A DNA stretch of 59,023 nucleotides, the filler included, from Asterionella formosa (taxonomy: Eukaryota): NCBI GenBank assembly GCA_002256025.1. It is 9 parts of 9 records of this genome, joined end to end, with 100 filler letters (N's around TTAATTAATTAA, not from the genome) between each part and the next. Parts side by side here need not be neighbours in the genome. Positions count along the whole stretch, not along the records: positions 6,581 to 13,056 come from NKIB01012692.1; 8 more parts are not named here. One strand, 5' to 3'. Position numbers and translations under genes: made by a program. The notes beneath the pieces are model-generated. The model had not been told where the DNA came from. It searched no databases and was given only the letters and a program-made list of their open reading frames with translations. Shown piece after piece: positions 1,363-47,660 of this stretch (the stretch's first letter is position 1; each line of letters begins with the position of its first letter).

Positions 1363-1564
1363 GTTCGACACTGGATGGAACTGTGACTCTGTAGGAATAG
1401 AGTCTTCATCCGTGAAGAACAACTATTTGGGTTTCCTCTTCGAAAGCAATCTTTCCTTCTTTTCAATCTCTGCCACTATTGAATCGGCATACTTCATTAT
1501 TTTTTCTAGAGTATTATGAATCTGTTAAAATTCATTTGATCTTTGACTGTATTCAAAGGCATCT

Positions 1565-2640
1565 TCGATTGATTTCATAAGTTTCTTCATCTTCTTTTCC
1601 GAAAACATGAAGTCGTGTAATGTAAACAATGAAAGTAAGTCACGTTTCTTGTTTTACTAATCCTTTGCATGAAATCCATGAAATGCCATTTGGAAATTTT
1701 TCAAAGGGCTAGAAGACTATGATGTAAAACAGTGGAAGGGAACCACGGAGCTTTTTGCAGGGTTTGTGAAGGTACAGCTGGTGTGATGGTAACCGAGTGT
1801 AGTAATTGTTGAACAGAGCACGGTGTAATATGCATATGTCCGCTAGTGTAGTTTTTACACAATATATATGCCGGTATAGATAGCTGACAGGGAAAAACCA
1901 CACGACAATGAACGTGATGGCTGGTTGTTGAGGATACCGGTATGTGATATGCATCAATCCATATCACATTTCATATTATATTGATGTACATATCAATGGA
2001 TCCTATATACCGTATAATACTATCATATTAACTGTTGGCTTTTACTGTATACATTAAAAGTCAAATATATTTATTAAGTAACATTCATTATGATCGATTG
2101 ATTTCATAAGTTTCTTCATCTTCATTTCCGAAAACATAAAGTCATGTAGTGTAACCCATGGAAGTAAGTCGACCATTGTTTCTTGTTTGACAGATCCTTT
2201 GCATGAAATCCATGAAATGCCATTGGGAAAGTTGTCAATGGGCCAGAAGACTATGATGTAAAAGAGTGGAAGGGAAATGCGGAGCAAGCTTTTTGCGGCG
2301 CTTGTAGAGGTGCAGCTGGTGTGTTGGTAACCAAGTGTAGTAATTGTTAAACAGAGCACAGCAGTGTAATATGCATGTTCTGCCAGCGAAGTGTTTACAC
2401 AATACACATGCCGGCATAAATACAGCTATAACAAGGAATAACGACATGACAATGAATGTGATGGCTGGTTGTTGTGATATGCATCAATCCATATCACAAA
2501 TCATATTATAGTAATGTACATATCAACGCATCCGTAAATCGTATACTTAGATCCTAACCTCTGTATAATACTATCATATATACTGTTGGCTTTTACTGTA
2601 AACATTCAAGGTTGAATATTTATTTTAAGTAACATACTTT
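1565..2640. repeat. Diverged tandem duplication, unit ~530 bp, of a decayed minus-strand coding sequence
   Basis: GATTGATTTCATAAGTTTCTTCATCTTC at ~1567 and ~2096, with collinear similarity afterwards; both copies translate to similar ALFNNYYT.LP.HQL..LPLFYIIVF peptides. Confidence 0.85.
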
Positions 2641-3324
2641 ATGATCGTTTTCTTTTTTCTATGATGTATCGATAACACTTACGTACATATTTTATTATAT
2701 TTTATTGTCATTTTATTATTTTAACATGATCATATTTTGATCAAAATATATGATGTTGGCTTTTACTGTATACATTAAAAGTCGAATTTATATATTAAGT
2801 TATGATTTATTCATTCATTTTCTGTGATGTATCGATAAAACTTGCGTACATATTTTATCGAATTTTATTGTCATTATATTATTTTAACATAAGCATATTT
2901 CGATTAAATTTATATCACACACATTTTAAAGAATCATCATACTTCTATGATCAATGTATCATAGTTATGTCATATATTTTTTCTAACATTACATATAATA
3001 TTTTGGTGATGTATGCATTGATGTGACCTTATTGTGATATCACATTATCATCTTATCAATCATGATGAGATGATTGGGAACTGTATTCTGCATTGTACTA
3101 CAAAGTATGATATTTTAACACGCACTTTAGTAGCTAATTCATTCCTGTCATGTAAACATGTCGACAGTGCACATACACACACGCTAATCAGGTTTGTGGC
3201 AACGGACAGTGGTTCCAACAAGCGAATGACAACACCACGGGAACCAATTTCTCCAGCGGCAAACCGCAATGATAAAGGACACTTGTCCCTCTATTGATGG
3301 GGATGACACGGACACCGACTTTTC

Positions 3325-3690
3325 CAGGAGCAAACAACAATGAAGAGACCCACTTGTCGCTCTATGGATGGTAACAAAGATGCGGACAAGTTCAACAGTG
3401 AAAACAAGAACAACATACCAATGAAAACAAGTCGACAGTGTGTGTAGGCACATGCCAAGTAGGTTTGAGGCAACGGGCAGTCCCAACAAGTAAATGACGA
3501 TACATATATCAAATTTTTCCTATGGCAAACCACAATGACAATGATGAAGGACATTCATCACTCTAGTGTTGATGATATAGATAACGGGCGGGTTTTCCAT
3601 GAGCAAAAAACAATGAAGCGAGCCACTTGTTGCTCTATTGATGGTAACAAAGATGCGGACAAATTCAATAGTAAATACAAGTAAAGCATG
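3325..3690. repeat. Diverged direct repeat, period ~275 bp
   Basis: CAATGAAG..A.CCACTTGT.GCTCTAT.GATGGTAACAAAGATGCGGACAA at ~3337 and ~3611. Confidence 0.8.
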
Positions 3691-4630
3691 CGAAATGCAA
3701 AAACGAGAGATATGGAAAAGAAATTGTAATCAGAATCATTCAATAACTATAACTTTGTGGATAGCAGTCTGTTACATTTTCGTATCTCCTTCTGTCTGAA
3801 GCTCAAAAGTAGGTGTAGTATCATATGACAATTGAAAATGTCAACAAGAACAAGAAGAATGTGTTTGTTTACAAGTTGATTTGTGAGATTGTGATGCTGG
3901 TGGTCAGCAATACAGAGTTACTATTTTCACTGTGTGCGGAACCATTCTGAGCTTGAATGATTTCTTCTCTGTAAATTCTTAATTGAATGATTATGAACAT
4001 AGGTTCACTGCACATGATAATTACTCAAAGATATAATGATCACTTGACCAACCTTTGAAGACGTTGTTATTGTAAACAAGCATTCCCCTTTTCATTGCTA
4101 GTATTTCGTTGTTGTTGCAAAATTCGGAGTGATGACAGATAGAAATGATGAGCCAAATTACATTACTTTAGCTGGTACATTTTTCAAACAAGAAATTCAA
4201 ATACAACAATGAGGGGTGAATGTACTTGGAAAGGCATGAAATGAAATGATGGCACCTCTGCCCATGGTCAATTTTGGTTCTTGTGCCATCCTGCACTGAG
4301 ATTTTTGAGATTATTTCAGCTGGTAGGCTTCTCATGTATTTATAATTTTATCAAATCTATGAGCTTATATCACTGTGAATACCTCCAGAAACCGATTGTT
4401 CTTTTGATTTAGATTTACTTCTCAGAAATTAAATATCCATTGAATTGATCTACCAGTACTGGCATGAAGGGGAAAACCCAGACTGAATCCAGTCTATTTG
4501 ACTGAAATGAGCCTATCCGGAAAGAATCCGTAATGAATACCGTCATCAGTATCATTACTATAAATTGATTATTTTCTTCGGCGGGAGCGGAGCGGAGCGA
4601 AAAAAAACAGCACACTCCATAATATCAAAA

Positions 4631-5749
4631 ATGGTTCTCAAATGTTCAAATCTCCTAGTTTTATTAGCTTTTTTTGTTTCAGGCTTAGTCTACCAAAGTT
4701 ATGTTCCCACTGAAATATATTCATCGGGAGTGACCTTCCTACTCCATGATACAACATACTATCGATCTGTGACTCATAGAGGTGGTTGGAAAAATGTTAT
4801 GGCACATTTGATAGAAAAAGGCACTGTTATGGAAAGAACCGAACATTTTACACCAGGCCACAACATGCTTCTCCTTGATCTAACCGAGAGGCACTTTTTG
4901 TGGGAAAACTTTGGGGTGATTAACCAACCATGGCTAGGAATCACACACATGGTCATGAATGCCCCAGAGCATTTCGAAGTCCCGGTTCGCCTTGAAAATG
5001 TTTTGAACCATCCTGATTTTTTGAAAAGCTTAAAATTCTGCAAAGGCATAGTGTGTTTCAGTAAGAACGCTGCCCGAAACGTCCAAGAATTTTTGGATAG
5101 CAAACTTACTGAGGTACCTAAAATACATGTTTGCGCTCTTCACCACCCCATTACGACTGAAGGTGTTGAGCCATTTAAGTCAGATGTTGATCTTAAGGTA
5201 TTGATTGAAAACCCAAACGCGGGTGTCCTGTTTTTGGGACAACAATATCGAAGATTAGCTACCATACATCAATTGAAAACGAGTAGGAAGAAGCTTTGGC
5301 TCCCAGGGTTCAAGTTAAATAGCACTGAATTCGAGCTTCTTAAAGGGAAGGTTGTGAAAGAACTTGTTATTGCCAAATGTGAGCATGATCCCTCAATTGA
5401 AGTTATATATTCCAATTCTTTGTCAGAGTACGACAGACTTCTGAAGCAGAACATCGTAATTGTTGATTTATGGGCTGCCACTGCCAACAATGCCATCCTA
5501 GAAGCCATTGGCCTTCAGATTCCCATGCTAATTCGACGAATCGACAGTACTGAAGAATACCTTGGCCATTCATACCCCCTTTTTTTTGACACCACAGAAG
5601 AACTGGCATTACTCCTTGTTGATTCATCAGAGTTAGGCAAGAAGCTTCGACTAGCACACAATTACATGAAAGACATGAATTTAAATGGGCTCACCATGGA
5701 ATCATTCAGAAAGGATTTAATAGGATGTGCAGACAAAAATTTGAATTAA
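4631..5749 (+). CDS. Intronless membrane-anchored GT-B (glycosyltransferase-like) protein, 372 aa from the first ATG
   Basis: Long clean ORF; N-terminal hydrophobic anchor LLVLLAFFVSGLVY; motifs HRGGW, PWLGITH, SLKFCKGI, HHP, EYDRLLKQNIVIVDLWAATANNAILEAIGLQIPML, EEYLGHSYPLFF; the LEA..P segment resembles the GT4 nucleotide-sugar-binding helix. Function is inferred. Confidence 0.8.
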   Translation: MVLKCSNLLVLLAFFVSGLVYQSYVPTEIYSSGVTFLLHDTTYYRSVTHRGGWKNVMAHLIEKGTVMERTEHFTPGHNMLLLDLTERHFLWENFGVINQPWLGITHMVMNAPEHFEVPVRLENVLNHPDFLKSLKFCKGIVCFSKNAARNVQEFLDSKLTEVPKIHVCALHHPITTEGVEPFKSDVDLKVLIENPNAGVLFLGQQYRRLATIHQLKTSRKKLWLPGFKLNSTEFELLKGKVVKELVIAKCEHDPSIEVIYSNSLSEYDRLLKQNIVIVDLWAATANNAILEAIGLQIPMLIRRIDSTEEYLGHSYPLFFDTTEELALLLVDSSELGKKLRLAHNYMKDMNLNGLTMESFRKDLIGCADKNLN

Positions 5750-5899
5750 ATTCATTTTGCTCTATCTACCTTTTTACTTTAATTATAATGTTACACTATA
5801 GACAAGCAGCATCACTCTCAGTTTCATTTTGGATCATTTTACTAGTTAAGGAAATATTTGAGTCCTTTGGTTTTATAACATGTTACTCATAATGGCTTG

Positions 5900-6480
5900 G
5901 ATTTTCTGTCAGCTCATCAATCATATCCTTTGGTTAGCTTTGTATTCTGTAATGGCCAAGGTGCCTTCCACTTGGTAATGTGGATGTTGATTCTTTCCAA
6001 TCCCTCATTCCTTTTTGAAAGTCCTTAATCTTAAATTCGGTCTTGATTGGAGTAATCCCTTTGACGCCTTTGGGGATAGCGATGGTGGTGATGAATTCTC
6101 TGAATACTGGAAAACAATTGTCACTTATGTTCTCAAATAATGTTTCCTCAAGAATTTGGTCTGCTGCATTTGTCAATCCATTAAATCCTAATAATGCGTC
6201 CATTTGACCAAATCCAAATTAAGTGCTGAATGTTTTCCAAAAGTGCTTATGACAATGTTGGAAGATTGCTTTTTTGAGAGTTTCTGCCTCAAATTCTTAA
6301 GTCAAAGTCATGACATCCCCTTGTTCTGATGTGATCTCTGGAACTAACACCATTGAATTTGTTCCCCCTACTCTTGAATTGAAAATCCTTTTCAGGCACG
6401 AATAACAATCTAGTGATTTTTCCGTATTTAATATTGATTGGAGCCTTTTTCTTTCCTTCCTTGCCTCTTTCAACAAGTAT
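5900..6480 (-). mobile_element. Non-LTR retrotransposon remnant (region preceding the RT domain)
   Basis: WKESTSTLPSGRHLGHY fits the W.E.TSTSPSG.H.GHY pattern I recall from stramenopile LINE-like elements; several stops; truncated by contig end. Confidence 0.7.
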
Positions 6481-6580
6481 NNNNNNNNNNNNNNNNNNNN
6501 NNNNNNNNNNNNNNNNNNNNNNNNTTAATTAATTAANNNNNNNNNNNNNNNNNNNNNNNNNNNNNNNNNNNNNNNNNNNN
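6481..6580. other. Artificial contig linker N44-TTAATTAATTAA-N44
   Basis: Identical 100-bp linker with stops in all six frames; flanking contigs decrease monotonically in length. Confidence 0.98.
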
Positions 6581-6861
6581 ACAAAAGGCAAGGAATAAAT
6601 GAAATAACAATCAACATCATACCAAGATAAGCGCCAGCAAAACAACCTTGACAATGACCTCAATTCGTCGTTGAATCTTGAATTTTCTTTCATGAGAAGC
6701 TGTAATTATGAAAGGAGTAAGAGGTGTGAGAAGTAGAAGATCAGAAAGAGTCACAATCACATCAAACTGACCATGCAGAAGCAACCTTCATCGTGGCGGT
6801 TTCCTTGATTTTGGCATGATTTTATAATTTATGTGGCGCAAGTATGATCATCTTCATTCTA

Positions 6862-7190
6862 GGGTACTGGTACCTGGTACCATGTACCAGGTACCAGGTA
6901 CAAACAAGTCTATAATTAATTAATTTAATCTGGGCGCTGTCAATTGTGCTCATTTCCTAATAAAATGTGCCAGACTCCTCTAATAAAACGAACACACAAA
7001 CGAAACTGGCGCAGTCTGCAGTCTTGTACGAGTGTACCATGAGGACCTCCAATTTTACCACCATTCAACAACCAGGTACCTGGTACCAGGCACATGATAC
7101 CAGGATTAAAAAGGTACATGAGGAAGAAAGTAAGGCTGCTGGTACCTTGCCAGGTATCAGGTAGGAGTACCTGTTACCTGGTACCAGGTA
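6862..7190. repeat. Cluster of CCTGGTACCAGG/GGTACC palindromic units
   Basis: TGGTACCTGGTAC-cat-GTACCAGGTACCA at ~6868-6896 and CCAGGTACCTGGTACCAGG at ~7072. Confidence 0.9.
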
Positions 7191-7197
7191 ATGGAGG

Positions 7198-8060
7198 GTA
7201 GCCCTCGCAATCGCTACAAGGTAAATTATTATTTAGCTGAGATACTGCGATTCTTTTGACTATACAAAATCCTACAGTGTAGTTGTTGTGATCATCTGGA
7301 GCATCCTGCATCATGTCGTCTCAACCTTGACCATGACGATAATAGCGGAAATCTCTACGAAAATTGAGAACGACGCTCTCCTGTTAGGAACATATATCAA
7401 TCACAACAAAGGCAATACAACCATAAGAGATTAGTTGCAATGGCATTGATAGTGACAGCGAAAACTGCAATCGCCGATGGCACAATTTTTCTACATAATC
7501 TATAGCTGCTCAAATCAAAACGACGCTGTTGCGAACAGATTTGACATTTTAGAAGTTGCTGAGCAATGAACGACTATAACAATAACATGATTAGTTGAAG
7601 CAAAAAATTGTTAAAATAGTTATTCATCAAATAAGAATGATTGATTGTACCAACGGCATTTGTGGATGCGGATATCGGCGCCAACAACTGCTTGTGCTGT
7701 TTGTTCTTTGGCAGTCGATATCAAGGGAAAATGTGATTGAGGAAAAAATAATAATTGAATCGAAATTAGGTACTCTTTACTTAATCATGTGGTGAGACCA
7801 GCATAATATTGCCGTGAAGTGGCGTAATTTCGCCATTATACCGTTATGCTAGTTGGAAAAAAATATTGTTGCGAACTCACATAATTATTCGTTTGATCAC
7901 ATAATTATTAGATAAGTAGAATAAATTTTGTTTTAGAACACATAAATTTTGGTTTGACCCAAATAAATTCCCAAAAAAGTAGCATAATATTTTAGAAAAG
8001 TAGCATAAATACGTCACTTTAGACATAAATTTGAAAAAGTGCCGTAAACGGCGTCTTAGA
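7198..8060 (+). repeat. Unclassified ~860-bp non-coding dispersed repeat (longest copy seen)
   Basis: 5' half aligns by eye with 20267-20640 and 47221-47660; 3' half with 58287-58580 and 33050-33108; ends in hairpin GCCGT-AA-ACGGC followed by GTCTTAG. Confidence 0.7.
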
Positions 8061-9769
8061 TGAAACCAGCAGTTTATTCTTGGTTGTCACGAAGCTGGAT
8101 TGGGATCTGGTGATGCTGACATTGTTTATTTCGCAATGAACTTACCTCTTGCTGTTGGATTTTGGTCAACCCAAGATAATTTCACTGCGGTAGGAGAGAA
8201 AGTTGGTGAGGCGGAAATGGCAACAACAGCTCTTGCTATGGAAGAGGCTTGTCGGGAGGAAATATATCAAACACTGAGTGTGCGTGAACGAGGCGATTGG
8301 GCTGACAAAGGACGAGATTTCCAGTGGTGGAATAGTCTACCTGTTACAGAATGCATGTCTGTACTCAATATGCTGCAACTCACCATTACTTATGATATGG
8401 GATGGCAGCAGCGATCCAGTGGGAATAAATACAACTCCGTAAGTGGACATGCATTCTGTATTGGTGGCTACACGAGAAAGATGATAGACTATCGAGTAAA
8501 ATCAAAGGTCTGTAATGTGTGCAACAGGGCTTTATGGTACAAGAAACCTATCAAACATCATGTTTGCTGCAAGAATCACGATGCCATTAATTAATACAAT
8601 GTTATCTACTCTACAATCATCGGTGATGATGATTCTACAATTTGAGCTGTCTCCAAATGGTTCTATAAGGAATTATCAAATCTACGGTCTGACTTTCAAT
8701 GGCCTAGGACATTAAATGGTAAAAAAACCTGACAAAGGATGCCTTCCACTACACATTCCAGAACCAAGGTTTCTTTCCGATCCTTCGCACAGGATCCGCA
8801 TTCTTCTCCGCCCTGCCTTTCTAAAATCCAATGGCCCAGTCTGTGTAGAGCGACATTCCAACAAAGCAGATTGTCTCTGACTAAAGATATATTATGGAGC
8901 ATGGATTAAAAATACCGGACCCTCTCTCTAACCGAATTCATGGAGTCCTCCATAGCACCAATCAACCACTAGTTTGGTTGCCACGACTACTGCTCGGAGT
9001 CATGATGTCCTGTAAAGTCTGGAAAAAGTGTTAGTAACGGAAAATATCATGACAAGGAAAAGGAAACGAAATTATGCGAATGGTTAATGAAAAATGTGGC
9101 AACAAAAGTCGAAGGAGAAAAGCTCCTTTCATTGTATCATCCCTTCGATACACAGATGAATGAGGGAATTAACAATGCAGTGTCACGACGATGTCCAAAG
9201 AACAAAGTGTTCGCAGGATCTGTTGACTAAAATACAGAGTGGCACCAGTTGCCGGACAAAAAGACACAAGGAGTCACAAAATACAATTAAGATGTATACA
9301 AACGATGTGGAATGAAAATGTCCCAACTGCAAGAATCCTTCTGGAAACAGAAGAATAAGCGATGGAACAATGGTGCAGCCTACAAAGCGCAATTCAATCG
9401 GAAAAGGAAAGGAAAGGAAAAGAAAGGAAAGGAAACGAAAGGAAACGAAACGAAAACATTCATGCTGCACAATTTGAAGCTGTCAAACAAGGAAGGCACA
9501 ACAATAAAACTGGAAAGACTTACAGCTCTGGGGTGGCTTTATTAGAAGACCAAGATCAGGATGCCACAACAAAGAATGCAAATGCGCAATGCAAACATTG
9601 TGGCCGGAATGATCATCAGAGAAAAAGCAGCACACTCTGTCCATTCTTTCAAGGCAAAGCGAATCATATTAATGGTAATGGTATTACATGTGCACCCAGT
9701 GTGGCCGGCGTAAGTTTGCAACGCCCTGCACATCAGGCAAATCAAATGGACATACGAAATTCATGTTGA
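8060..9769 (+). pseudogene. Degenerate DDE transposase of the Kolobok / 'Mutator-like transposase' type
   Basis: Motifs across frames: ITYDMGWQQRSSG..YNSVSGHAF.IG..T.K.IDY.VKSKVC..C..H.C.KN, IIGDDDST, FLSDPSHR, H.FGCHDYC, DTQMNEGINNAVSRRCPKNKVFAGS, C-terminal CKHCGRNDH zinc knuckle; stops and frameshifts; 5' end cut by the 7198-8060 repeat. Confidence 0.8.
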
Positions 9770-9916
9770 CCAATCATATTGTATATGTGGAAGCCGGCAC
9801 TTACAATGGAATTTTTTGGACAGGGGATTTTAGGACTAAAAATTCCGGCACACGACTACTATTCCGATGATGATGTTTCGGCTCATAGTAATTCTGATTC
9901 CGATATTTTGGCGACA

Positions 9917-10369
9917 GTAGAAAAGACCGATTTTGTCGAGTTTTTGGACAACGATAGCTAAACGTCGGCTGGGTCTGAAGGCGATTTAGATACATAGGTA
10001 ACTTTGAAATAGCATCAGTACATAACTTCTGGCGAGAAACTGCAGAAAGGAACTTCGGTTTTTTACGATACCAAATAAACAGATTTCCCCCAAATTTCCG
10101 AGTAGTTTTAGCCTAGTAAAAAAACCGAAGTTCCTTTCCTGCAGTTTCTGACCAGATCCTATATACTGACGAGCGATATATAGAGAGGACCTACACCCCT
10201 ACTTTGTCTGAAGACTATATGTAAGCATATGGAAAGGGTTTGTATTGGTGAAAGCTCCGTTGAGCGTTATACATATTCAATTTATATGTGAAAAGTACCT
10301 GTTTGATTAGTCTGACTCAATACTATTTTTTTAAACCTACCTCGGGCTAGGGGTTCAAATGCAGCAACC
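9917..10369 (+). mobile_element. 3' terminal module of the transposon, with a long internal inverted repeat, ending CC|TTAA
   Basis: Collinear with 20917-21366; IR arms ~10028-10066 and ~10116-10156; TTAA at 10370-10373. Confidence 0.85.
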
Positions 10370-13056
10370 TTAAGAAAACAGGTTCCCGTTGTACCATACA
10401 GACAATTAAAACCGGTACAGATCCCTGCGCACCAGCGCCCGATGAAGGCACGTCTGTTGGGATCATGATCCTGGGTTGCTTGATAAGTAAGTACATAAGT
10501 ACATGAACATCAGAGCTGGAAGCGCCAGGAAGCACTACGCGGTTTATCCTTCTAGCAATTGAGTAGTCTCAAAGCGCTTAATATAAGTATTGTTAACTTT
10601 TTTGATACTTGTGATTTTGGCATCAAAATCATCAGCCAACCAATCCAGTTCTTCGCAATAGTCACACTCAAAGAGCCAGGGAAATTCATGAGAAGGGACA
10701 ACTCATTGCAGCAGCCAGCAAATGAGGATCATGATCACCCCACTCATTTCTATTTGGTTTAGTGAATGGTCAGATGGTTTTGAACCAAGATATTCCACCA
10801 AAGCCAATCAAGGGTCAGCATGAATAAATACAATCACCATTGCACCACCACCAAAAAAATTCATTCTTTGGACTAAACATACCCAATTGCAGTCGGGAGG
10901 TCATCCTCAGAAAAACTCTTTTCTGCAGATTTGAAGATCTTGGTCAAAAAAGCAGACCCAGATGGTAAAGCTCTCTATCAGGGTGGAATGAAATCTAATG
11001 TGAGGGTGAACGCTTAACTATTTGTTTCATAAATGACAGACAGAGAGTCATGGGGCAAACTACATCACGTTGGGTTTAGAAACATGCACTATGAGATGGA
11101 GTCACGCAGGAAATGTTTCTAATGTTGCCGACAAATTTGCCAGCCTGCAATGACTGCCTCAATAATCTCAACTCCAATGAGCACCAAGTTAACTGGCCAC
11201 CACCCAGTCAAGTTTGCACGTGTTGGAAAACAATTAATATGATAACATGCTGCATGTTGAATTCCCCAATATTTCCATGTGAATATGATACCTGAATCTA
11301 ATCTACTCTTTACTAGCTACGCTCATCACATATGCGGGCATAATTTCTGCAATTGATTTAATAAATGAAAAAGTGTTCAATGGAAGTTGGAGCTTTCAGG
11401 TTGGATAAGCCTATCTTCAGGTGAGCTTTGTGAATTGAATGCAATTGTCAGTGGTTAGGTTTCAAACAAGAGAGTTTGTCCTCTGTGCTGTCCAGAGGCA
11501 AAATATAACAAGGATTATACCCAGAAATAATCCCTGTTGGACATAAAGATCATAATCATGGTGAAATCGTGAATATTACTACTATCAGCAAATACTTCCA
11601 ATGGACATTGTCAAATTAGTTATGTGACCTGCCAACAAACACCGACTTTACTAATTTTTGTATGCTACTACCAAAACTTAACATGAATGGCATCCCAATT
11701 CCTGCCACCCTGCCTGAATAAACAAAGTGTGTAAACCATGATTGATTCAGAATGGATTGGATTGAAAACCAGGATAATAAGTGCCCCTCTGATGGAACAT
11801 ATTTTATGAAAGAGAGTACATAATACTAAGAACCTAATAAAAATGTATAGTAATTATTTTATTGCGCATTTTTACTAGTCTATTTCTAGGTTGTCTTTGT
11901 TGCACTCCATGGCCCATATATGGTTGGGCGGTTGGATTTTGGGTGGGTAGTCACTTCCTCATGCAGAAGTACGGGTTAAAATTATTTAGGGAAGCATTGA
12001 TCTTGGATCAATTCTCATTGACTAATCTGTTCTTGTCAGCCGGAGAATTGAATTGTGAGTGTTGATTGGGTAAAGAATTTTCTTTGTGTCCCCACTCCTT
12101 GGTGCTATTTCTCTTCATCTTTTTATTGTTCAGTATGTACTGTGTAGGTATGGTGGGACGGAAATGATCTGTTTGGTTCTGATTTCGATGCATTGACATG
12201 GTCAAAAGACAAGCCTTAGCTACTCAATTCAATCATGCTGCCTTATGGATTCCGGTCAATATCTCCATGATTTTCTTGTCAATTTTTTTGGTTCTTTCAT
12301 CTGCTTGTAGCGTTTTGTATACTGTGTAGCTGCAGCGGCGCTGAAACGGAGTCATTTGATGGTGTAGCTGTAAATAGTATACATCACCCCCTATGGTGAG
12401 AGAGGGTGCTTACTAGCCAGCGCTTGTACGATTGCAGTGATAGTACTGCCTAACTTACTTTCTACTGTTTACATTTGGGTACTTTGACAAAATTGTAACC
12501 TAATAATAAACATAATATTCAAATTTTCTCAATGTATATTAATAAACCACATAATATATCAATTTGCTTTGATCCCAATTGGTAGAAACATTTCAAACCC
12601 TAAACCTAAGGCCAACAATAGATAACAATTTGGAAACTCAATTGGTAGTAAAATTAAAATTGATACCAATTTGGATCCAAATTGGCATTTCTGTCTACAT
12701 CATATTGGTATACAAATCCGATTTAGCAAAACAAATTTCAAAATTTGGGTTTTGGACACTTGAAAAAATCCCAAAAACCTCGAAATCCCGATGTGGGGTC
12801 CAAATTGGGTGCTAAACAGCTAAATTGGTTACCGGTACTTCTCGATTTCTGTGTACAGGCATGTACAAAATTTTTCACACTTGTACTCGCCCTGGTACCT
12901 GATACCTGTAATAAGAAATGATTTATCTTTTATCACCCCACATCCACGGACCATGTCGTAGGCATCACCGGATCAATTAGATCCAAGATTAAAATTCCTA
13001 TGTTTTGTACTCCGAGTACTCACCAAACAACAAGCATCTTAAAATCAGGAACACGA

Positions 13057-13350: not shown

Positions 13351-13950
13351 GAACTTGATTATAGCCAAAGTGATGGCGTGCCAACTCGAAAGTATTACAG
13401 TTTCAAAGATTTCTTCTTTATCGGCCTATCTGCCTCTAATTGACTTGCAACTGTTATAGTTAAAACTCTTTCCATGTTAACTGTAATATTCCAAACATGG
13501 TAGAGGTGATGGGGTTGGTTGCCATTATTACATTAACAACAATGATCCTAGTCGAGCTACGTTTTCGGGGCCTCGATGTTCTTCATTATTACAATCAATT
13601 TTATTTATTTTAGAAAAAGATGGTCGAGCTAAATTAATTTGCATCACACACACTATGAATAAAAATGCTTCTAGTACACGTTCCAGCAAGAAGGGACATA
13701 AAAGAGCAATTGTTTCTGCTGCATCTGCGCGGGCTGTAAAGCTACTAGGTAGGAGTAATTAGCATCTGGTACCATGTACCTGGTACTATTACTAGCTATC
13801 AAACGTAAGTACGAAATTGGAACATAGCTCCAACGATGTATACCGGTAGTATGAATACGGACATGAGAGAGTGCCGGCCGGAAAGGAGCAAAGGAGTAGA
13901 AAGCCTTCAACACAGCCAGCAGTCAGTACACACGGAGAGTAGCTACCAGG

Positions 13951-14138
13951 TGAAGTATCTAACCAGAAGTAGTAGTATTTGTTGAATATATGATCTTATT
14001 TGTTAATCGTTATGGGTAACTCGTTCTCTAAGTCGACACCAAAGTATACAATGAGGGTTAGTCGAGTTCTCTCATTATTGAGTTCTGATATATATGATAA
14101 AACACTAACCCTACTGTATTGATGCGCAAGATCGCTCA
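13951..14138 (-). repeat. Gypsy 3' LTR (188 bp)
   Basis: Direct repeat of 18251-18447; purine tract GGGAGAG adjacent on minus strand. Confidence 0.92.
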
Positions 14139-14159
14139 CTCTCCCACACCACCAAGGGA

Positions 14160-15880: not shown

Positions 15881-18250
15881 GGACCAGTTCTATTTAAATC
15901 CTTTTTTAATTTTGAAGACCAAAATTTGAGATCTGTTGGATTTTATTGATATCCCAATGAGTCAGTTTCTTCAACAGACCATTTCATTTGGAATTGTGCT
16001 TGATGACTTGTGGTTAAATACATTTATTTCAGCCATATCAGCAGCTTTCCGTATCTGTATAGTTTGCAGCTTTAATGTTTCATGTGTTAACATAATTCCT
16101 GATAGGTGTATCAAAATAGAACAATCCATTATGTAAATGTTCTGTATCATTATAGGAATCAATGACATGCAGAAAAAACTGATGTATCCACTACACAGGA
16201 CATAGTATTTTGTACAAAATCCATCATAAATTAACCAGCTGGACAAATGAGTAAACTTGCAGAATGTACTAAGACCAGGTACTTCTGGTGCAGAATACTA
16301 GCTGACGGATTAAATTTTGGGAGCATCATGTTTTATGAAAGAGTACTGGCAAAGGAAGAAAACATCATACCTGCTATTCATGGTATATATCAAGTATATA
16401 TGCTCGATGGGCAACGAAATGTCCTGAAGTACAATTCATTCATAAGTTAAAGATCAGGACCCACTACGATCAAATAACATTCATCTTATGTCATGTATAT
16501 ACATAGCAGCCACCAATCCTTGGGTTGCTAATGAAATGGGAATGAAATGAAATGAAGCTTATGCATTCTTACGCAAAGAAAGAATGAGACCGGAATCAGG
16601 CCTTCAGATGCGCATATGGAATGATATATTGAATCTACCTTTGCATTTTAAAACATCCAGCGTTAGAATAGCTGCGTTATCCAACCTGCAATTATCCTGT
16701 AAATAACAAATGATATCCAGGTAATGATTGACGTAAGACATATTCAATGTGCTGTCTCTCATAAATATACTATATATATATTATTAAAATCATAGCATTG
16801 CTGTTGTCGCACATACTTCTGTTAAGGCGATCTGTTCAGCATTTTGCTGGTTTTTATTAGGCACATAGGCCATTAGCTGACCAACAGGAGGGTTCATGAC
16901 CACTAAAATTTCCTAGGCAGATTCATAAAAGTCGGCAGGTATGGCCCTCGGCACAGTATCCTAACCAGACATCGCTCATCATAGGGTTAACCCATGGAAT
17001 TCCCATGGATTTGCTTGTATAAAACATGCACGGAAAACATGAATAGCTAGTACTAGGGTTAGCTTTGACAGTATGATAATTCGCTCCACGTGAAATTTCC
17101 ACGCCAGTGGAACATGAACAGGAACAGGGTTTGTAGTGCTAGTAATGTTAACTCGATGGACCTTCTGTTTGACCATTGTTTCACAATCACATGCGTGGCC
17201 GGCTGCATTAAAATGCATGTGCCCTGCCATTGTTGGCAGTTAGTATTATAAAATTATCATGTACAAATTTTCGCGTGAAATAGTTGTTTTCTTGATGCAT
17301 CACACAACTGCATTCAGGAATGCGAAGACGATCTTCTGTTAAAATTGAGACTAGTTACGCTTGTTTTCTTGATGCATCATGGGATTTTCTTCAACTTCAA
17401 CTATTTATATGACGATTTTTGTGGTAGAAAATTGATACCAGGCACGCGCGTTCTCTCGACATAACAAGACTGCCTTCAGCGATGTGAAGTCGATTTCGGC
17501 TTATGGCAGAACTCATGCTTGACGAGGATGTGCTCGAGTTGATCGTTGAATGATTGTTGACTCTCGAAGTAAGTCAAAACCAAGCGAATTAATTATTTTG
17601 TGTTCTTTTCATTGTTCCATTCAAACACTTGCTGCCACGCATTGTCAATAAAGCAAAATGACAATCAACCTCAAATCTTCCTTGGCAGAGACCTCTTGAT
17701 CTTCTGGATGAGGTATCATGAGTTTCAGGAACTTCTTTAAGGTCTTGAGACAGGCAGCGAAGGCGATCATAAACATGTTGAAATGTTTTATTGAGTATTA
17801 TCATGGCATTCACTGATGCTGACTCTCAGAGATACCATGAAGAAGGTAATCTTCCAGCCACATCACCATGACTTTGTTGTTGAGACTATTATGAGACTGA
17901 GCATCTGGGTGTATTGCAACGCTCATCCAGTCAGACAAGACGATATCTGTGAGTCATCTTTTGTAGCAGTAGGTGAACAAGCAAGGAATCTGCTGGACTA
18001 AAGGTATATGAGTTAGCAATATCACAGGATTTACTGAAATCAATCAATAAGCTTCCACTGAGTGTTCACTGATCATATCTTTTTTGAAAGACTCCAACAA
18101 GCATTGACCTGGTAGCGATACACAAAGAGGTCTGAATCTTGGCTGATGTTTAGTGTGTTGTTATCCTTCATCAATGGGACCACTGGAACTTGAGAGGACA
18201 TTATATCAACATGATTATTAATTCTAATTGGAATCGTTTTGAATTCAAAG

Positions 18251-18447
18251 TGAAGTATCTAACTAGAAGTAGTAGTATTTGTTGAATATATGAGCTTATT
18301 TGTTAATCCTTGTGTGTAACTCATTCTCTAAGTCGACACCAAAGTATACAATAAGGGTTAGTTGTGTTCTCTCATTACTGAGTTCTGATTTATATGATAT
18401 AACACTTACCCTATATACGTCTCTGCATTGATGCGCAAGATCGCTCA
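18251..18447 (-). repeat. Gypsy 5' LTR (197 bp)
   Basis: Direct repeat of 13951-14138; followed on the element strand by CTTTGAATTCAAA. Confidence 0.92.
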
Positions 18448-18457
18448 CCAGGTGGTA

Positions 18458-19728: not shown

Positions 19729-19909
19729 TTCGATGGAAATAATAATCCTTAAGTAATTAGGAACATGTTACTCTTATTGACTGATGACGATTTGCAGAAT
19801 CAGTCTCTGAACACAACTCGGATTTGCTGATTGATGAACCTGTTCAACAAACTATCTTCTAGCTTTGGAATACAAATAGGAATCATGTTTTCTACATTTA
19901 CAACTTGCT

Positions 19910-19990
19910 TACAATGACTAGAATTTGCTGACTACGACTAGAAGTTGCTGACAATGATTAGAGTTTGCTGACAATGAGCGACTAGAACAT
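19910..19990. repeat. Degenerate ~20-bp minisatellite
   Basis: 3-4 units of (A)ATGACTAGAA.TTGCTGAC; related units at ~20735-20775. Confidence 0.7.
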
Positions 19991-20266
19991 GTGGATACAA
20001 ATAGATTTTCTAACTGATCCTTATGCCAATGAAGTATACTATAGTACATGAACAGACACAACCAATACCCCCTGATAGCCTTGCCAATACTATGAACATA
20101 TGTAATGTTATATCTATATACATGGTCACAGTCATTATCACGCCTGATGCAATAACCTACTACCGGGGTATCACTAAATTTGCAATATCATACACATCAC
20201 ATGCATATCACATGATATAATATGGCTGCCGGTATGCACATAGGATACATGCTCAGGGGACTTGAT

Positions 20267-20640
20267 GTAGCCCTTGCTGAAGCTAGTATATAATTATTTA
20301 GCTTAGATGTTGCGATTTGTCTCTATTTATAAAATGCTACAGTGTAGTTCTTGTGAGTGGCTGGCTGGAGAATCAGCTAATTTCTCCACGAAAAATGAGA
20401 ATGGTGCTTTGCTATAGGGTACATATATCTAACACGTCATAGATAATACAATCATAAAAAATAACTGTAATAAGACTAATATTGACAACGAAAATTGAAG
20501 TCGCCTATGGCGCATTTCTTCATGTACTTTAGATGGCCAATGCACAATTCAAACGACGAAGTTACGACAAGATTTAACACTTTCACAGTATACAACACTC
20601 TACACTACGGCAATCATCTGTAGGCCGAACCAAATTTCGT
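20267..20640 (+). repeat. Partial copy of the 7198-8060 dispersed repeat
   Basis: Shared blocks TAATTATTTAGCT, CTACAGTGTAGTT, ACGAAAA.TGAGAA, ACATATATC, GCC.ATGGC. Confidence 0.75.
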
Positions 20641-20908
20641 TTGATTCTTTATATAACCATATCAATTAATAGTCCATTGACATTTTCAAAATGACTCCTT
20701 TGTTTATGATTACTGATCCAGTTGGTGACTACATATGACTAGATGTTGCTGACAACAACTAGAAGTTACTGATTGGTGAATTCCATTAGGATACCGTCTT
20801 CCAGTTGCTGAATATCATTACCAGTAGTAGTAGGTAAACACGATTTCGATGATCAGAGCACAACTTGGATTTAAAGATGATAATTTAACATTATAGTAAT
20901 TTCTTTAA

Positions 20909-21366
20909 AGGAGTTCGTAGAAAAGGCCAATTTTGTCGAATTTTTGGACAACGATAGCTCAACGTTGGCTGGGTCTGAAGCCGATTTAGATACATAGGTA
21001 ACCTTAAAATAGCATCAATATATAACTTCTGGCGAGAAACTGCAGAAAGGAACTTCGGTTGTTTTTACTTCGCCAAATAAAGTGATTTCCCCCGAAATTT
21101 CTAGTCTTTATAGAATAGTTTAAAAACCGAAGTTCCTTTCTGCAGTTTCTCGCCAGATCCTATATCCTGACGATATATAGCGTTGCCCTATACCCCTACT
21201 TTGGTCAATGACTCTATCTAAGCATATGGAAAGGGTGTCTTTTGGTGAAAGCTCCGTTTAGCGATACACATTTATGCTTTAGTCGTACGAAGTGTGTGTT
21301 TGAGTTCTCTGACTCAATATTATATTTTTAACCCTACCTCTAAACTAGGGTTGAAATGCAGGAACC
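20909..21366 (+). mobile_element. Stand-alone 458-bp copy of the transposon terminal module (solo-LTDR-like or MITE-like) between TTAA sites
   Basis: TTAA|AGGAGTTC...GGAACC|TTAA; perfect 33-bp internal IR at 21028-21060 and 21125-21157; collinear with 9917-10369. Confidence 0.85.
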
Positions 21367-22103
21367 TTAAGCTAAATTCCCGCCCCCCTCTGGTTTCTCG
21401 ATTGCCGGACCCTCCTGGTACCAGGTACCGAGAATCGTACTCGGTAGGCTCTGTAGAGCAGAGCACAAGGCCTAGCTACCGGTAAGTGCCGACAAGCACA
21501 CTCTGTAGTACAAGCTGACAATTAGTCGTGTGCAACATCTCAACCCTGCAAGGAGCAAAGCGGTTCTTGCGATGGATGAAGAAGGACAAGCCAAGAGGCA
21601 GGAGGGTGTTACATACACAAAGTCTTCTCAGATGCCACAGTCATCTCATTGTCTTAAGTACTAGACAAGGTGAGTAGTAGCATATCATTGTTGGATAGAA
21701 GAAAGCCAATTGAATGAAAATCCATTTGATTGAAGAGTAGGAAGGAAGGAAAGTACAAATAATATAGATTCGTTAAAATGTATAATTTAAATACCATTGC
21801 ATGTATTAATTGCTCTTTTCACTTGTTGTTGTTGTTGTTGCTTGTTGTTGCTTCAGCAACGACGACGTCGACAGCTTAAACAATCACAAGGAACATGGAA
21901 AAATTCTACATAGCTATTGAAGTGTTGACTAGACATATCATAGGTACTACACATGTTGAGGATTTCAATAGCAGATAATAATTTGTGGAATATGCAAATT
22001 ATACTGTGGTTTGAGACGTTCCTATTTGTTGAGTGAACAGCGTGGGACATGAAACATCCAGTGCTCCATACATCTAAATGTACGCAACAAAGTTCGAGCT
22101 GCA

Positions 22104-23536
22104 CTATCCTCGCAACTTGGTGTGCTTCACCTTCTTGGCTTCGAATTTCTTTTTGTGGTACTTGTCAGCAAACCCCTGAACCAATGATTGATAATTCTTA
22201 TCTTGCCGTTGCTGTGAATTAGTCTTTGTGACAATCTGCACTACGTCTTCATCGTCTAGTTGATGCTCCACTCCACATCGTTGAGGAGAGTGCTTGGCGC
22301 TTGTACCCCAGACAAGGGCAAAATTGAAGTCACGAAGCATTTGGGATGACACATTGGCACATAGGGACCTGATCTTGGTTCCTTTACGGATCTTGGACAA
22401 GACGACAGGATCTTCCAAGTCTGGTGGTTGACCTGCAGTGGGGAGAATGATTCGATACGTCAGTGAGATACAACATTCCATGAGTTTTGAGAAATCCAAA
22501 TGGAAATTTTCAGACAATGCATACCTCGTCGTTTGGTGTAAATTCTCGTCAAACCCAAGTATTCCCACATCTTGGCCTTTAGCAAATCATCTTCATCTGG
22601 CTTTCCGATATTGTACTCTTCGCTCACACTTCCCACCAAAGAATGGGGTTGACGTGCCAAATTATCAATCTCTTCTATAGTTACTGTATCAATCTTGTTG
22701 TAGAGATACAAGCATGGTTTGTATTGTCGATTGCCCTGAATTACATCTACCAATTGATCCACAGTGATATCTTCTCTGGTCAATATGTCAGCATTTGTAA
22801 TTTTATACTCCCTCATGATGTTCATTGCCACTTTTTCCGGTTCTGGCCCCAAATTAGTCAGTTGAACGGTGGACGAAAACTTGACTCCACCAGTTTTCTT
22901 TTTCGAAAACGTCACATCAGGAGGTCTCTGATTTAATCGGATCCCTACCGTTTCTAGTTCCTTTTCCAAAATCTCACGATGCCTGTTCAGTCCTTCCTTT
23001 CCTGCATCCAATACGATTAAGATCGCATCTGCATTGCGAGCAACAGCTATAACTTCCCGACCTCGGCCCTTACCGTGAGCAGCACCCTCGATAATTCCTG
23101 GCAGATCCAAGATTTGGACCTTCGACCCCTTGTACTTCATAGTACCAGGAATACACGTGAGAGTTGTGAATTCGTAGTCAGCCTGTGTTTGTGCATTTGT
23201 GAGAAAAAAGGAACATCGACATGGTCACATGCCAAAAGTGCAGTTAAGCAAACCACTCACAGCCTCTGACTGCGACCCTGTCAATTGGTTCAACAAGGAC
23301 GACTTCCCCACTGACGGAAAGCCAATCAACGCCACTCGCGCATCCCCCAATCTCGCAACATCGAATCCCTCTCCGGCCCCAGCGCCTCCACTTCCGCCGC
23401 TCTGCTCCACTAGCAAGTCGTTTCGAAGCTTGGCTAATTTGGCCTTAAGTGTTCCTAAATGGTAGTTGGTGGCCTTGTTCTTTTGGGTCCGGGCCATTTC
23501 ATCTTCGATTTCCTTGATGCGTTCTAGAATACCCAT
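22104..23536 (-). CDS. DRG2: Developmentally regulated GTP-binding protein, DRG2/Rbg2-type OBG GTPase with TGS domain, 420 aa; exons 23536-23261, 23182-22525, 22432-22104
   Basis: [73 protein letters not shown] introns 23260-23183 (78 bp) and 22524-22433 (92 bp) join the ORFs in frame. Confidence 0.96.
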
Positions 23537-24956
23537 TTTGAATTTCCCTTGTTGTAGAAAGACGAAGAATTATCGATAGTAGTCAACGATAGACTGTGCT
23601 ACTCTGATAAAGCAAATAGAATACAATGATCTACAAATAATTGTGATGGAATGAAAGGGAATCATGCATCTAGGCAACTACTGGTACCCAGTACCCTTTA
23701 CCCTGGGGTACCATTTCTAAAAATAAAACAACTACCTACCGGTACATACAGTTATCAGCCAGCATGGCTGATCAAAACTTTATGATGAGGTTGTGATGAT
23801 GGGCGGAGGACGAGACAAGAAAAACGAAGCTGGCTGTGGGTGCAATTCCCGCTCCAGCTATCGTCTTGCCATTCGGGTCCTTGTTAAGTAATTTTTGGGC
23901 TTTAAGTAATTTCATAAGTAATTTTTATTTAGGGGCAATATGGGGCACATGGAATTTTTCGGCAATAAAATTGCCGATTTTAGCAAGACAGCCAGAATAA
24001 CAGTAATATGCATAGGGATGATACAACAAGCGTAAAACACACGAGAATGATTGTAACATGCAACATCAATGAAAATTGAACATGATGTTTGGAGCAACCA
24101 AAGTATGAAATGCGATGTAATAAGTAGCATCAAATTAGAAATAGAAAAAATTGTTTTGGGTTAGAAATGAAGTGAAAAATAGGAGTTTCAATGGAAACAT
24201 ATGCATTGTGACATTGTACTACTTACACAGGCAACATTGACTTTCCATTACCACACAATCGAAGACCGAAAGAAGAAGAAAAAAAGCAGAAACCAATTTA
24301 GACCTGCAACGTTATGTAGTGTAGATGATCTGGTTGCTGCAACCATTCACATCGCTGTAGCAGCCTAACACCAGTAGCAGTCTTTCCGCCACAATCATTC
24401 CTCCCACCCAACAACCCTGATCATTCCACTCCATTCTGAGCTAGCGTGATTGCCAGGCTACTCCAGCACTATCGACGCCCTCTAGCTGAGTATTTTTACG
24501 TAGCCTGTGATACAAACTCGTAGTAGAAAGGTAGCAAAGCGCGTTAGTACAAGAAAAGCATTGCTTGGCGGGAATATTGACATCATTGTCAATGACTATA
24601 CAAATCAACAAATAAGATCAACAACGGCACAATACAACTTCAAAGAGTAGGCATTGATACATGCATCGGCCCTTTGAAGATATTTACAATCAAATCAAAA
24701 CGACAGTGCGGAATGACAAAGAACGATAGAAGCGATCAAAACGGACCATGGAAGCAGCAATCAAATAGGAAACTCAACAATCGTATCTATGATCACATTC
24801 AGTATTTGACTGGTGTACTCACCGGTCTGCTCTAACAAGCGTAACACGCAGCAGATGATGGGCACATAAGGAAGTCGAAAGTTCCTGTTGCAAGCCTGAA
24901 TTGAGCAACAACAGGAAGGATAGAGTGAGAATTATAATTGTGAGGACGAAATTGGG

Positions 24957-26197
24957 TGTTGAGATTGCGTCCCGAAGCACTCTATGCTTTCTTGTATCCT
25001 GTAAGGACACGTCAGGGACCAAAAAGGCTGTAGATATGAACAACGATGTCTCCGTAATCGATTGTAATCATTCCTAAGAGTTTTAATAGAATTATGGGTT
25101 TTTACTGTTGACGTTGATTGTTTTCGAATTCTGAGTCTTCTCTGGTACCATATTCTTTCTTGATTCATTCGATTCAATATGTAGTAGGTAATTTATACCG
25201 GGATTTTCTTTCCTAAAATATTTTCTCCAACACACTCCTGCTGGACACGGATGCTCACTTTGAATTCATAATTTGCTGACGAAAATGAATAAATTTCGTT
25301 CCAACCAGTGGTTTCATCATGTAGTCTGCTAACATTGCATCCGTTGGACAGTACTACTTAATCTGTACTTCCTTTCTTTCAATAAGATCAGTAATATAAA
25401 AATATTTGATGTTGAAATGTCGTGTGCGTTTTCCTGAACTTGCTTTTCCATTTGCTTCTAGCTTCATTGCGCTAGTGTTGTCACAGTAAATGACATTCGT
25501 AGTCACCTTGTGTCCTTGCGCTTCAATAAATAATTTCGTCCACAACACCTTTGATACAATGTCATCGACACCAACCAATTCAGCTTCAGTCAAGCTTCTA
25601 GTGTTCACTTTCTGTTTTGTGGACATAGAACAAATAATTCCGTTTCCAAGTGACAATGTGGCTCCAGTGTGACTTTTAAAATCTTTGTGTACTGCAGACG
25701 CCGCATCAACGTACCATTTAATGCTCTGAGTGTCATCAGCACTCATAGATGCAACCTCATTCTGAGTTGCTTTCAAGAAATTTATGATCTTGACTAATTT
25801 TGCCCAATCGCCTTCATTTGGTTTTGTAGTTTGGGTTGCCAGAAATGCAATTCCTGGTTGAATGTCCTGTCTTCCTCACTTACATAGGAACATTCCTTTC
25901 ATGCCATATAATGCCTTGATCATCCTAACATATAGGACCTTGCTGTTTCCTTCATAAACAACATATTTTTCATAAGTCTCGGGGCTGAGTTCTGTCAACA
26001 TATTGACAAGCAAACCTCTAATCTTCATCATGATTTGTTCCCCTTTTTCTTTCTCATCGATATCCACGTGCACAAATGCATTGGGTATATCTGCAGTCAT
26101 AACATCGCGATTTTGCTTTGCATCAATTGTTGCTGTTATCATAACAGATTCAGTCATGGTAGTTGGACTAGCTGCTTCATCTCTTTCCATGAATTCA
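24957..26197 (-). mobile_element. 3' part of a Ty1/Copia element: internally deleted RT, RNase H, PPT and 3' LTR (24957-25232)
   Basis: ASPT..ESV..TA.IDA...RDV.TADIPNAF, KALYGM joined directly to KGMFLCK, WYVDA..AVH.D.KSHTG, KQKVNTRS.TEAELVG, KRTRHFNIKYFYITD; PPT GCAGGAGTG then TGTTGGAGA...TCTCAACA. Confidence 0.92.
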
Positions 26198-27654: not shown

Positions 27655-27870
27655 TGCATACCGGTAGTCGAGCTGGTACCCCTGGTAGCACTTGGTGCAT
27701 GGTACCAGGTACTGGTACCTGGTACCATGTACTGATACAAGGGGGCCTGGTACCAGGTACCACGTACCAGGGTGGTAAACGGTACTCTGAAAGGTGGTCC
27801 AGGCCTCCTCGTTTTGACGAAACTCCGATTTTGCGTGGGATTAAAATGTTGGTACCTGGTACCACCAGGG
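27655..27870. repeat. Dense GGTACC/CCWGG palindrome cluster
   Basis: About eight GGTACC sites, including the fold-back CATGGTACCAGGTAC-tg-GTACCTGGTACCATG (27698-27729). Confidence 0.9.
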
Positions 27871-31359: not shown

Positions 31360-31955
31360 TACCTTGTACTTGGTACAGGTACATAGTGCCTGGTACCTGG
31401 TACCTGGTACCGATCTACCAGTAGCATCGTTTTCAATCAGAATCGCTCGCAACCTGATGGTACCAGGGGTACTTGATACCAGGTACCATCAGGTGCCTTG
31501 TAACGCAGTACGGTAGGCTCGCTCGAGCATGTAGCGGAGGCACTTTTCGGCTAATACCACCGACGTACCGTAGTACGGTATGATATTCATACTAAGATAC
31601 CGGTATGCTTCTGGTCATAAAATGTGCACTACTGTAAACATATATACCGGTATAGATATGATACATGTTAAAGAATATAATACAGCCATTCCTGTACCAG
31701 GTACCTGTAGTCTAGTACCAGGTACGCAGAATGGAAACTGGTATACCATTCATGCCGGTATGATGATGTACGGAGTACCTGGTATCAGGTACCTGGTACT
31801 ATTTGATAGGTAGGAGCACCTCTCACCAGTACTACCCGGTAGTAACGGTACTGGTACTCCGAATGCTGGTTCCATGGCACCAGTGGTATGTTATGTGAAC
31901 AGTACAGTACCTGGTACTGGTAGAGACAAACCGGAGTACAGGACCATATGTACCG
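31360..31955. promoter_or_regulatory. GGTACC/CCWGG-rich region upstream of the CLC gene
   Basis: CCTGGTACCTGGTACCTGGTACC at ~31389; fold-back ACCTGATGGTACC...GGTACCATCAGGT at 31452-31494. Regulatory role is inferred only from position. Confidence 0.45.
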
Positions 31956-47220: not shown

Positions 47221-47660
47221 TAGCTCGCATTTGCGCTGGAATATAATTATTTAGCTGAAATCATGCTATTCTTTTGTATATAGAATACGCTATAGTGTAG
47301 CAGTAGTCGTGGTTGCAAGCGGCTGCAGCATTCTTCATCATCATGTCGTTGCAGCATTGACCATGATGAAAATAGCGACCATCTTGACGAAAAATGAGAA
47401 TGACGCTTTCCTATTTGAGACATATATCAAACAAGACATAGAAAGTACAATCGTACAAGAATAATCATAATCACACTAATATTGACGACGAAAATGGAAG
47501 TCGCCGCTGGCATATTTTTTCATTTAATTTAGAGATGCGCAATTTTATACGACGATGCTACGAGCAGATACCACGCTTTTACAGTAGCTATATAACAAAT
47601 AAGACTACGACTACAGCAGTAACATGAATAATCGAAGCAAAGTATGTGAATTAAGGTCAA
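47221..47660 (+). repeat. Partial copy of the 7198-8060 dispersed repeat
   Basis: Shares ATTATTTAGCTGA, CATCATGTCGT, TTGACCATGA, ACGAAAA.TGAGAA.GACGCT, ACATATATCAA. Confidence 0.8.

Follow-up and report, generated by a model that had tools for sequence, protein, structure and literature searches.

The window analysed here, a stretch of 59,023 nucleotides from the alga Asterionella formosa (GenBank assembly GCA_002256025.1), contains two copies of the right end of a Kolobok-type DNA transposon: module A (9917–10369), which closes a decayed element, and module B (20917–21366), a "solo" copy that stands by itself. The evidence indicates that the element is very probably a classical cut-and-paste Kolobok with short terminal inverted repeats (TIRs), not a composite transposon, and that the module is the last 450 bp of that element. 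A preliminary description of the same DNA had recognised a Kolobok-type element and had interpreted the module as a long terminal direct repeat (LTDR), with the solo copy as the product of recombination between a 5′ and a 3′ LTDR. The superfamily assignment is upheld by TTAA at all four intact ends, GG...CC termini, a transposase matching PF20700 and a KolX-like open reading frame (ORF). The LTDR and solo-LTDR architecture is not: the 5′ end of an intact relative is unrelated and bears a 23-bp TIR, the outcome that had been set beforehand as contradicting it, the module edge falls within a coding tail, and the solo copy has no TIRs of its own and is a 5′-deleted derivative. This removes a claim of composite-like (LTDR) DNA transposons in an alga; such elements are so far known from animals only.

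An intact relative carries short terminal inverted repeats and no direct repeat

Metagenome contigs were scanned with P0001, an intact 791-residue transposase related to the decayed one in the window, and three loci were returned, among them L001 (3784 bp) and L002 (5472 bp). These two are 99.86% identical over 3534 bp and unlike outside that span, and the point at which the identity stops therefore marks the edge of the element. The left end of L001 reads TTAA followed by GGTTCCTGCATTTGAACCCCTAG, and the right end of L002 reads CTAGGGGTTCAAATGCAGGAACC followed by TTAA. The intact relative has perfect 23-bp TIRs with GG...CC termini and a length of approximately 3.9 kb (L002 positions 854, by transfer from L001, to 4789). 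From left to right, its layout comprises TTAA, a 23-bp TIR beginning with GG, a 152-residue Cys-rich KolX-like ORF, the 791-residue transposase with an acidic tail, a non-coding subterminal stretch of about 370 bp that contains a long hairpin, and a 23-bp TIR ending in CC before TTAA.

The first 600 bp of the relative were compared with its 3′ module in both orientations by Smith–Waterman alignment. The inverted comparison scored 48 against a null mean of 20.7 and was reached by 0/300 shuffles; the direct comparison scored 20 against a null mean of 20.6 and was reached by 188/300. A blastn self-comparison likewise found no direct repeat within the relative. All direct-repeat comparisons were made on this metagenome relative, which shares 75–86% DNA identity with the window copies. 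The 5′ end of the full-length relative is therefore unrelated to the module and carries a short TIR.

The window holds a decayed element and a collinear solo module

The window consists of nine pieces of about 6.48 kb each, joined by runs of N plus a 12-base linker; module A lies in piece 2 (6581–13056) and module B in piece 4 (19729–26197). A decayed Kolobok transposase remnant at 8064–9766 (+) corresponds to residues 198–791 of P0001 (tblastn, E 1e-177) and matches Pfam PF20700 at E 1.7e-19. Eight in-frame stops interrupt its first segment, a stretch of 18 residues is missing, and the reading frame changes. No second transposase copy occurs elsewhere in the window. This copy lacks residues 1–197 as well as the accessory ORF and 5′ TIR. 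An unrelated repeat at 7848–8057 (+), found again at 58400–58557, adjoins the 5′ break (about 8058–8066). The region 8064–10369 is accordingly read as a dead copy in which everything left of transposase residue 198 was lost at a junction with another repeat.

Modules A and B are collinear. blastn aligned 9917–10374 with 20917–21371 at 82.2% identity over 461 columns (E 4e-127), the mean column identity in a MAFFT alignment was 87%, and both right ends read ...GCAG(C/G)AACC, then TTAA. Module A (+), the last 453 bp of its element, comprises the last 26 codons of the tail plus the stop, the subterminal hairpin region and the 3′ TIR (10347–10369, −), which differs by one mismatch from the intact relative's 23-bp TIR and is followed by TTAA at 10370–10373. 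Module B (+) is the 3′-terminal 450 bp alone, shares 82% identity with module A and 85.6% with L002, and ends in a diverged 3′ TIR (21345–21366, −) with TTAA at 21367–21370. Much of the preliminary description is thus borne out at this level: the decayed transposase before module A, the missing 5′ half of that copy, and two homologous, collinear modules on different contigs, each ending in CC before TTAA.

Both modules contain a long internal inverted repeat, at 10028–10156 (+) in module A (DNA fold −33.2 kcal/mol, z −8.8) and at 21028–21157 (+) in module B (33-bp perfect stem, −45.4 kcal/mol, z −13.9). The hairpin is kept in all three aligned copies, that of L002 also having a 33-bp perfect stem and a z of about −14. 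It lies mid-module and not at the module ends, and therefore does not represent an LTDR's TIR. It may act as a transposase-binding structure or a 3′-end structure, or may be an old nested palindromic insertion. Scans of genome-contig and viral-contig collections with the conserved 25-nt hairpin arm gave no exact match. A microRNA (miRNA) precursor was considered and rejected, the Rfam matches of the module B hairpin to plant and long miRNA precursors being all below threshold (43 bits against a gathering score of 139).

Three further observations concern the surroundings of these copies. The Kolobok copy may have been cut by the repeat that 7848–8057 and 58400–58557 share. R1, a diverged repeat some 400 bp long (7221–7604, 20282–20590 and 47235–47641; 70–79% identity), occurs on the same strand upstream of both modules and once elsewhere; it was considered as a part of the transposon and rejected, being unrelated to the intact element. 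Just past the right end of the transposon, 10700–10830 (+) encodes a conserved-looking peptide ending in WSDGFEPRYSTKANQGSA and a stop, which may be the remnant of another transposase; nearby ORFs have no Pfam match.

The left edge of the module lies inside a coding tail

Module A starts with GTAGAAAAG, which codes for VEK in an acidic tail that is conserved (...YSDDDVSA.S.SDSD.L.TVEK.D.VEFLD.DS...). The remnant of this C-terminal tail occupies 9824–9997 (+), contains YYSDDDVSAHSNSDSDILATVEKTDFVEFLDNDS followed by a stop, and keeps the reading frame of the transposase ORF; the V of VEK, at 9917, is where the module begins. Homology between the window copy and L002 runs through the module start and upstream of it (79.7% over 693 columns). 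In L002, the tail shares its frame with the transposase ORF, with a 72-nt GTAAGT...ACAG stretch (4176–4247) in between, and once this stretch is removed, the transposase ORF (788 codons) continues in frame into the acidic tail (57 codons). The stretch is a candidate intron that would be spliced out, the alternative being read-through.

A 75-residue tail query retrieved 108 related proteins, and in 107 of them the alignment begins 15 or more residues upstream of VEK (a biased count, as set out below); the single exception begins at a contig edge. Some proteins (P0172, P0206) pass from the C-terminus of the transposase into the tail with no interruption. This shows the left edge of the module to lie inside the predicted C-terminal coding region of the transposase, and an LTDR boundary at that point would therefore make no sense. 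In another protein, P0031, the tail follows immediately on the accessory-ORF region; internal-deletion derivatives of this transposon therefore exist.

The solo copy is a 5′-deleted derivative

To the left of module B stand TTAA (20905–20908) and the eight bases AGGAGTTC (20909–20916), together 20905–20916 on the plus strand, with no element homology and no TIR. These eight bases are absent from module A, in agreement with the preliminary description, which had called them unique to the solo copy. A search for TIRs belonging to the solo copy itself was negative: its first 40 nt scored 9 against the reverse complement of its last 40 nt (null 11.1; 281/300 shuffles reach this score), and 5 of the 20 first positions match without gaps. 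Within the window, the 23-bp TIR (at most three mismatches) occurs once and its 13-bp core twice, all of them 3′ ends. No 5′ TIR was found anywhere in the window, and the piece that carries module B holds neither a transposase nor a 5′ TIR. By chance, 5.7% of window positions have a TTAA ending 0–12 bases upstream, and the left TTAA of the solo copy is therefore weakly informative.

Upstream of position 20917, local alignment of 20600–20916 with the window copy was at null level (211/300 shuffles reach it), and alignment of the same segment with L002 was borderline (2/300) and very gappy. An end-anchored 70-nt test upstream of the solo copy was matched by 232/4000 random windows for the window copy and by 756/4000 for L002. 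In light of these alignments and tests, a 9-mer match, ATAGTAATT, and a MAFFT alignment upstream of 20917 were treated as unproven. The eight extra bases were also considered as the remnant of a 5′ TIR (GG..TTC with a 2-nt insertion), a resemblance too weak for a claim.

Taken together, the solo copy is a 5′-deleted derivative that has lost everything left of the module. It may have arisen by deletion or rearrangement, with a chance TTAA nearby, or by an in-place deletion that removed nearly all of a once complete, TTAA-flanked insertion. GGTACC-rich motifs resembling CCTGGTACCAGGTAC were seen at 7149–7195, 13744–13790, 27690–27736, 31368–31414 and 21400–21430, the last just to the right of the solo copy.

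The ends and the transposase fit Kolobok, and the accessory ORF points to a Kol0-like layout

In the relevant passages of Kojima and Bao 2022 (PMC9587614), the Kolobok superfamily is defined by a TTAA target and RR...YY ends. TTAA is present at 4/4 intact ends (the 5′ end of L001, the 3′ end of L002, and the window 3′ ends at 10370 and 21367), and the GG...CC termini of L001 and L002, together with the CC at both window 3′ ends, fit 5′-RR...YY-3′. These ends suggest a TTAA target-site duplication. P0001 matches PF20700 at E 3.8e-43 and no other Pfam transposase family at E ≤ 1; a literature search for PF20700 found no paper. With respect to the DDE signature, C/DxxH plus a zinc finger located after the second D and before the E, the candidate residues picked out by eye in P0001 are D307 (YDMGW), CDDD (402), GCHDYC...WC (520–530) and NE (579), and a relative, P0003, has DHTH where P0001 has CHDY. 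A C-x2-C...H-x-C cluster at residues 347–369 follows just after the first catalytic D. As expected from its superfamily, the element would transpose by DDE cut-and-paste into TTAA.

The accessory ORF of the intact relative (P0005, 152 residues; L002 1167–1622, +) is Cys-rich, lies upstream of the transposase on the same strand, and has 50 homologues; C27, C40, C46, C53 and C58 are invariant. A 13-member profile of this family finds 73 proteins, and 19 of 26 distant ones match PF20478 P2RX7_C (P2X7 intracellular domain) at E ≤ 0.01, with 12 above the Pfam cut-off. Comparison of the two alignments with hhalign gave 99.3% probability and E 7e-21. The Kol0 lineage's KolX protein resembles the P2X7 C-terminal ballast according to the passages on it in PMC9587614, and by this transitive link the accessory ORF is predicted to be KolX-like, that is, P2X7-ballast-like. 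The preliminary description had seen no nuclease ORF, and the search of the intact relative agrees: of the 17 other ORFs of at least 60 residues in L002, none matches any Pfam family at E ≤ 0.01. Because a KolX-like ORF is present and a His-Me nuclease ORF is absent, the layout is, as far as sequence comparison goes, Kol0-like and not KolobokP-like.

The right end of the element is highly repeated

Contigs of four runs were placed on 20000–22300 at a likeness of at least 80%, and their depth was summed, a measure that is not strict copy number. Summed depth over the module was 0.94–2.3 million against 918 in the single-copy flank for run X1, 58k–314k against 163 for X2, 1843–6849 against 4.98 for X7, and 1387–6880 against about 3 for X8. 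In all four runs, the module family stands of the order of 10^3-fold above single-copy depth. The right edge is sharp at 21370 in 4/4 runs and is followed by unlike flanks (agreement 0.37–0.40); the copies thus have the TTAA in common and differ beyond it. The region left of the module is itself repetitive, with other families. A cluster of loose ends at 20905–20920 is not found among the 24 rows listed (there are 2223 further rows), and no inference is drawn from this. The right end of the element is thus among the commonest repeats of this alga, which matters for genome annotation and assembly.

Weighing the alternative readings

Several points weigh against a classical cut-and-paste Kolobok whose last 450 bp form the module. 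Judged from their 75–86% DNA identity, L001 and L002 belong to a related family and are not the full-length copy of the window genome; their contigs are named marine metagenome, while the organism of the window appears in freshwater and algae runs. Both flanks have not been seen on one insertion: L001 stops before its right end, and L002 at its left end (840–860) has neither TTAA nor the first three bases GGT that are seen in L001 (240–255). A TTAA does flank the solo copy on each side (p about 0.06 for that on the left). The module is repeated about 10^3-fold, and the left neighbours of most copies are out of view. As for the accessory ORF, its link to KolX is transitive and comes from profile searches only: it has no direct Pfam match, 22 aligned members have no P2RX7_C match, sequence and profile comparison with the PDB gave chance matches (E 0.26 or worse), and its AlphaFold model is poor (mean predicted local distance difference test score 42.7). 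A search of the ESM Atlas with this ORF returned nothing above 0.86. The altered left end of L002 may reflect a terminal deletion or a chimeric metagenome contig.

It is extremely unlikely that the element is a KolobokP-like composite, with the module as an LTDR at both ends and the solo copy as a solo LTDR formed by recombination. The length of about 455 bp does fit the approximately 450-bp LTDR class in the passages of PMC9587614, the solo copy, with its AG...CC ends, has a TTAA on either side, the module is repeated to a high degree, and a full-length copy from the window genome itself has not been seen. The intact relative, however, has no direct repeat between its ends and carries the 23-bp TIR alone, and the left edge of the module falls inside coding sequence that 107 of 108 related ORFs cross, a count biased in that the query held the upstream part and that short ORFs of solo-type copies may go uncalled. 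The solo copy also lacks TIRs of its own, in contrast to the KolobokP LTDRs, and the relative encodes no His-Me nuclease and carries a KolX-like accessory protein, which PMC9587614, in the passages concerned, assigns to another lineage.

The module might instead be a discrete non-autonomous unit, running from TTAA to TTAA with a canonical 3′ TIR and a non-canonical left end beginning with AGGAGTTC, amplified to about 10^3 copies; we regard this as improbable. An asymmetric "one-TIR" mobilisation, in which the left end would be recognised otherwise, for example through the conserved internal hairpin, is an equally doubtful form of it. TTAA on both sides of the solo copy would suit such a unit, as would a summed depth that is very high and roughly even across the module, including the first bin (20924–21000), and two contigs (X2 record 13 and X8 record 26) have a break at 20918, the 224 bases upstream being unlike. 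Copies that run on into the coding tail, absent in the solo copy, would however be just as likely to give breaks at 20918, and 107/108 tail ORFs do continue upstream of the boundary. Moreover, the left end is unlike a TIR, which would leave a DDE transposase without anything to bind at that end; the left TTAA is weakly unexpected (5.7%), and one such copy has been seen. An assignment to MuDR/MULE (Mutator-like element) or piggyBac in place of Kolobok is very unlikely. It draws on the Pfam name of PF20700, the sole Pfam match of the transposase, which is "Mutator-like transposase", on TTAA being also the piggyBac target, and on a few piggyBac families that encode a protein resembling the KolX C-terminus in the passages of PMC9587614. 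Against MuDR stand TTAA at 4/4 ends in place of 8–10-bp duplications, and P0001 has no match to MULE or piggyBac-type Pfam families at E ≤ 1. The ends of piggyBac elements differ from the GG...CC termini found here. Termini of the GG...CC type separate Kolobok from piggyBac in PMC9587614, and many cysteines are retained in the KolX-like ORF, in contrast to the form carried by piggyBac in the relevant passages of that paper. The reading of a classical Kolobok with short TIRs, and of the module as its 3′-terminal part, is preferred to all of these.

Other features of the window

The genes in the window are ordinary eukaryotic ones, encoding a DRG-type GTPase, a CLC channel, kinases and a fused aminodeoxychorismate-synthase-like ORF. 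The runs that best cover piece 4 are labelled algae metagenome or freshwater metagenome, and 20 rows from 16 studies cover part of it. The aminodeoxychorismate-synthase-like ORF (53242–55755, 837 codons) is bracketed by a 153-nt inverted repeat pair at 52578–52730 and 56443–56595 (84% complementary), with related copies at 13950–14139, 18226–18448 and 56039–56239. Piece 1 contains tandem units of about 530 bp (80% identity) at 1565–2650 and 2576–2908, together with smaller repeats of 163–170 bp.

Comparison with known systems

Kolobok elements have already been reported in diatoms, in Fragilariopsis cylindrus (PMC9587614) and Cyclotella cryptica (PMC7466962); the passages of these two papers that concern diatoms describe no accessory ORF or end structure. 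With KolobokP (PMC9587614), the present element shares the superfamily, a repeat size of about 455 against about 450 bp, and possibly a CCHC finger after the first D. As the pertinent passages of that paper have it, KolobokP LTDRs of about 450 or 660 bp stand at both ends of full-length copies, each with 11–18-bp TIRs, and the His-Me finger (I-PpoI-like) nuclease ORF lies downstream of the transposase on the complementary strand, some families being without it. The present element differs in having no long terminal direct repeats, no TIRs at the module and no His-Me finger nuclease, and no multimers were seen.

Non-autonomous and truncated derivatives of cut-and-paste transposons, for example the Kolobok-derived T2 miniature inverted-repeat transposable elements (MITEs) of Xenopus (PMC6004289), offer a further comparison: here too the end region of the element occurs in many more copies than a single-copy sequence would, and there are internal-deletion forms (P0031). 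They differ in that the solo copy of the window keeps one TIR, which makes it a dead fragment and not a mobilisable MITE.

The closest resemblance is to KolX-encoding, Kol0-type elements such as Kolobok-1_XT, which in the relevant passages of PMC9587614 have the same TTAA target, RR...YY termini and short TIRs, a DDE transposase, as predicted for the present element, and an additional small protein, rich in Cys, that is related to the ballast domain at the P2X7 C-terminus. Two differences stand out. The present transposase has a C-x2-C...H-x-C cluster after its first D (P0001 347–369), and a CCHC finger in this position is ascribed by the same passages to KolobokP, E, D, 5 and some solitary families. 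In addition, known Kol0 hosts are animals, recorded there as vertebrates, annelids, cnidarians and sponges alone, and the present host is an alga. In the sole KolX paper found in our literature search, the KolX-bearing lineage is known from animals alone, and here a KolX-like ORF is found in a relative of an alga's Kolobok. Separately from the reading of one-TIR mobilisation, and more likely than it, this would be the first KolX-carrying Kolobok outside animals; if true, the origin of the P2X7 "ballast" domain moves back beyond animals.

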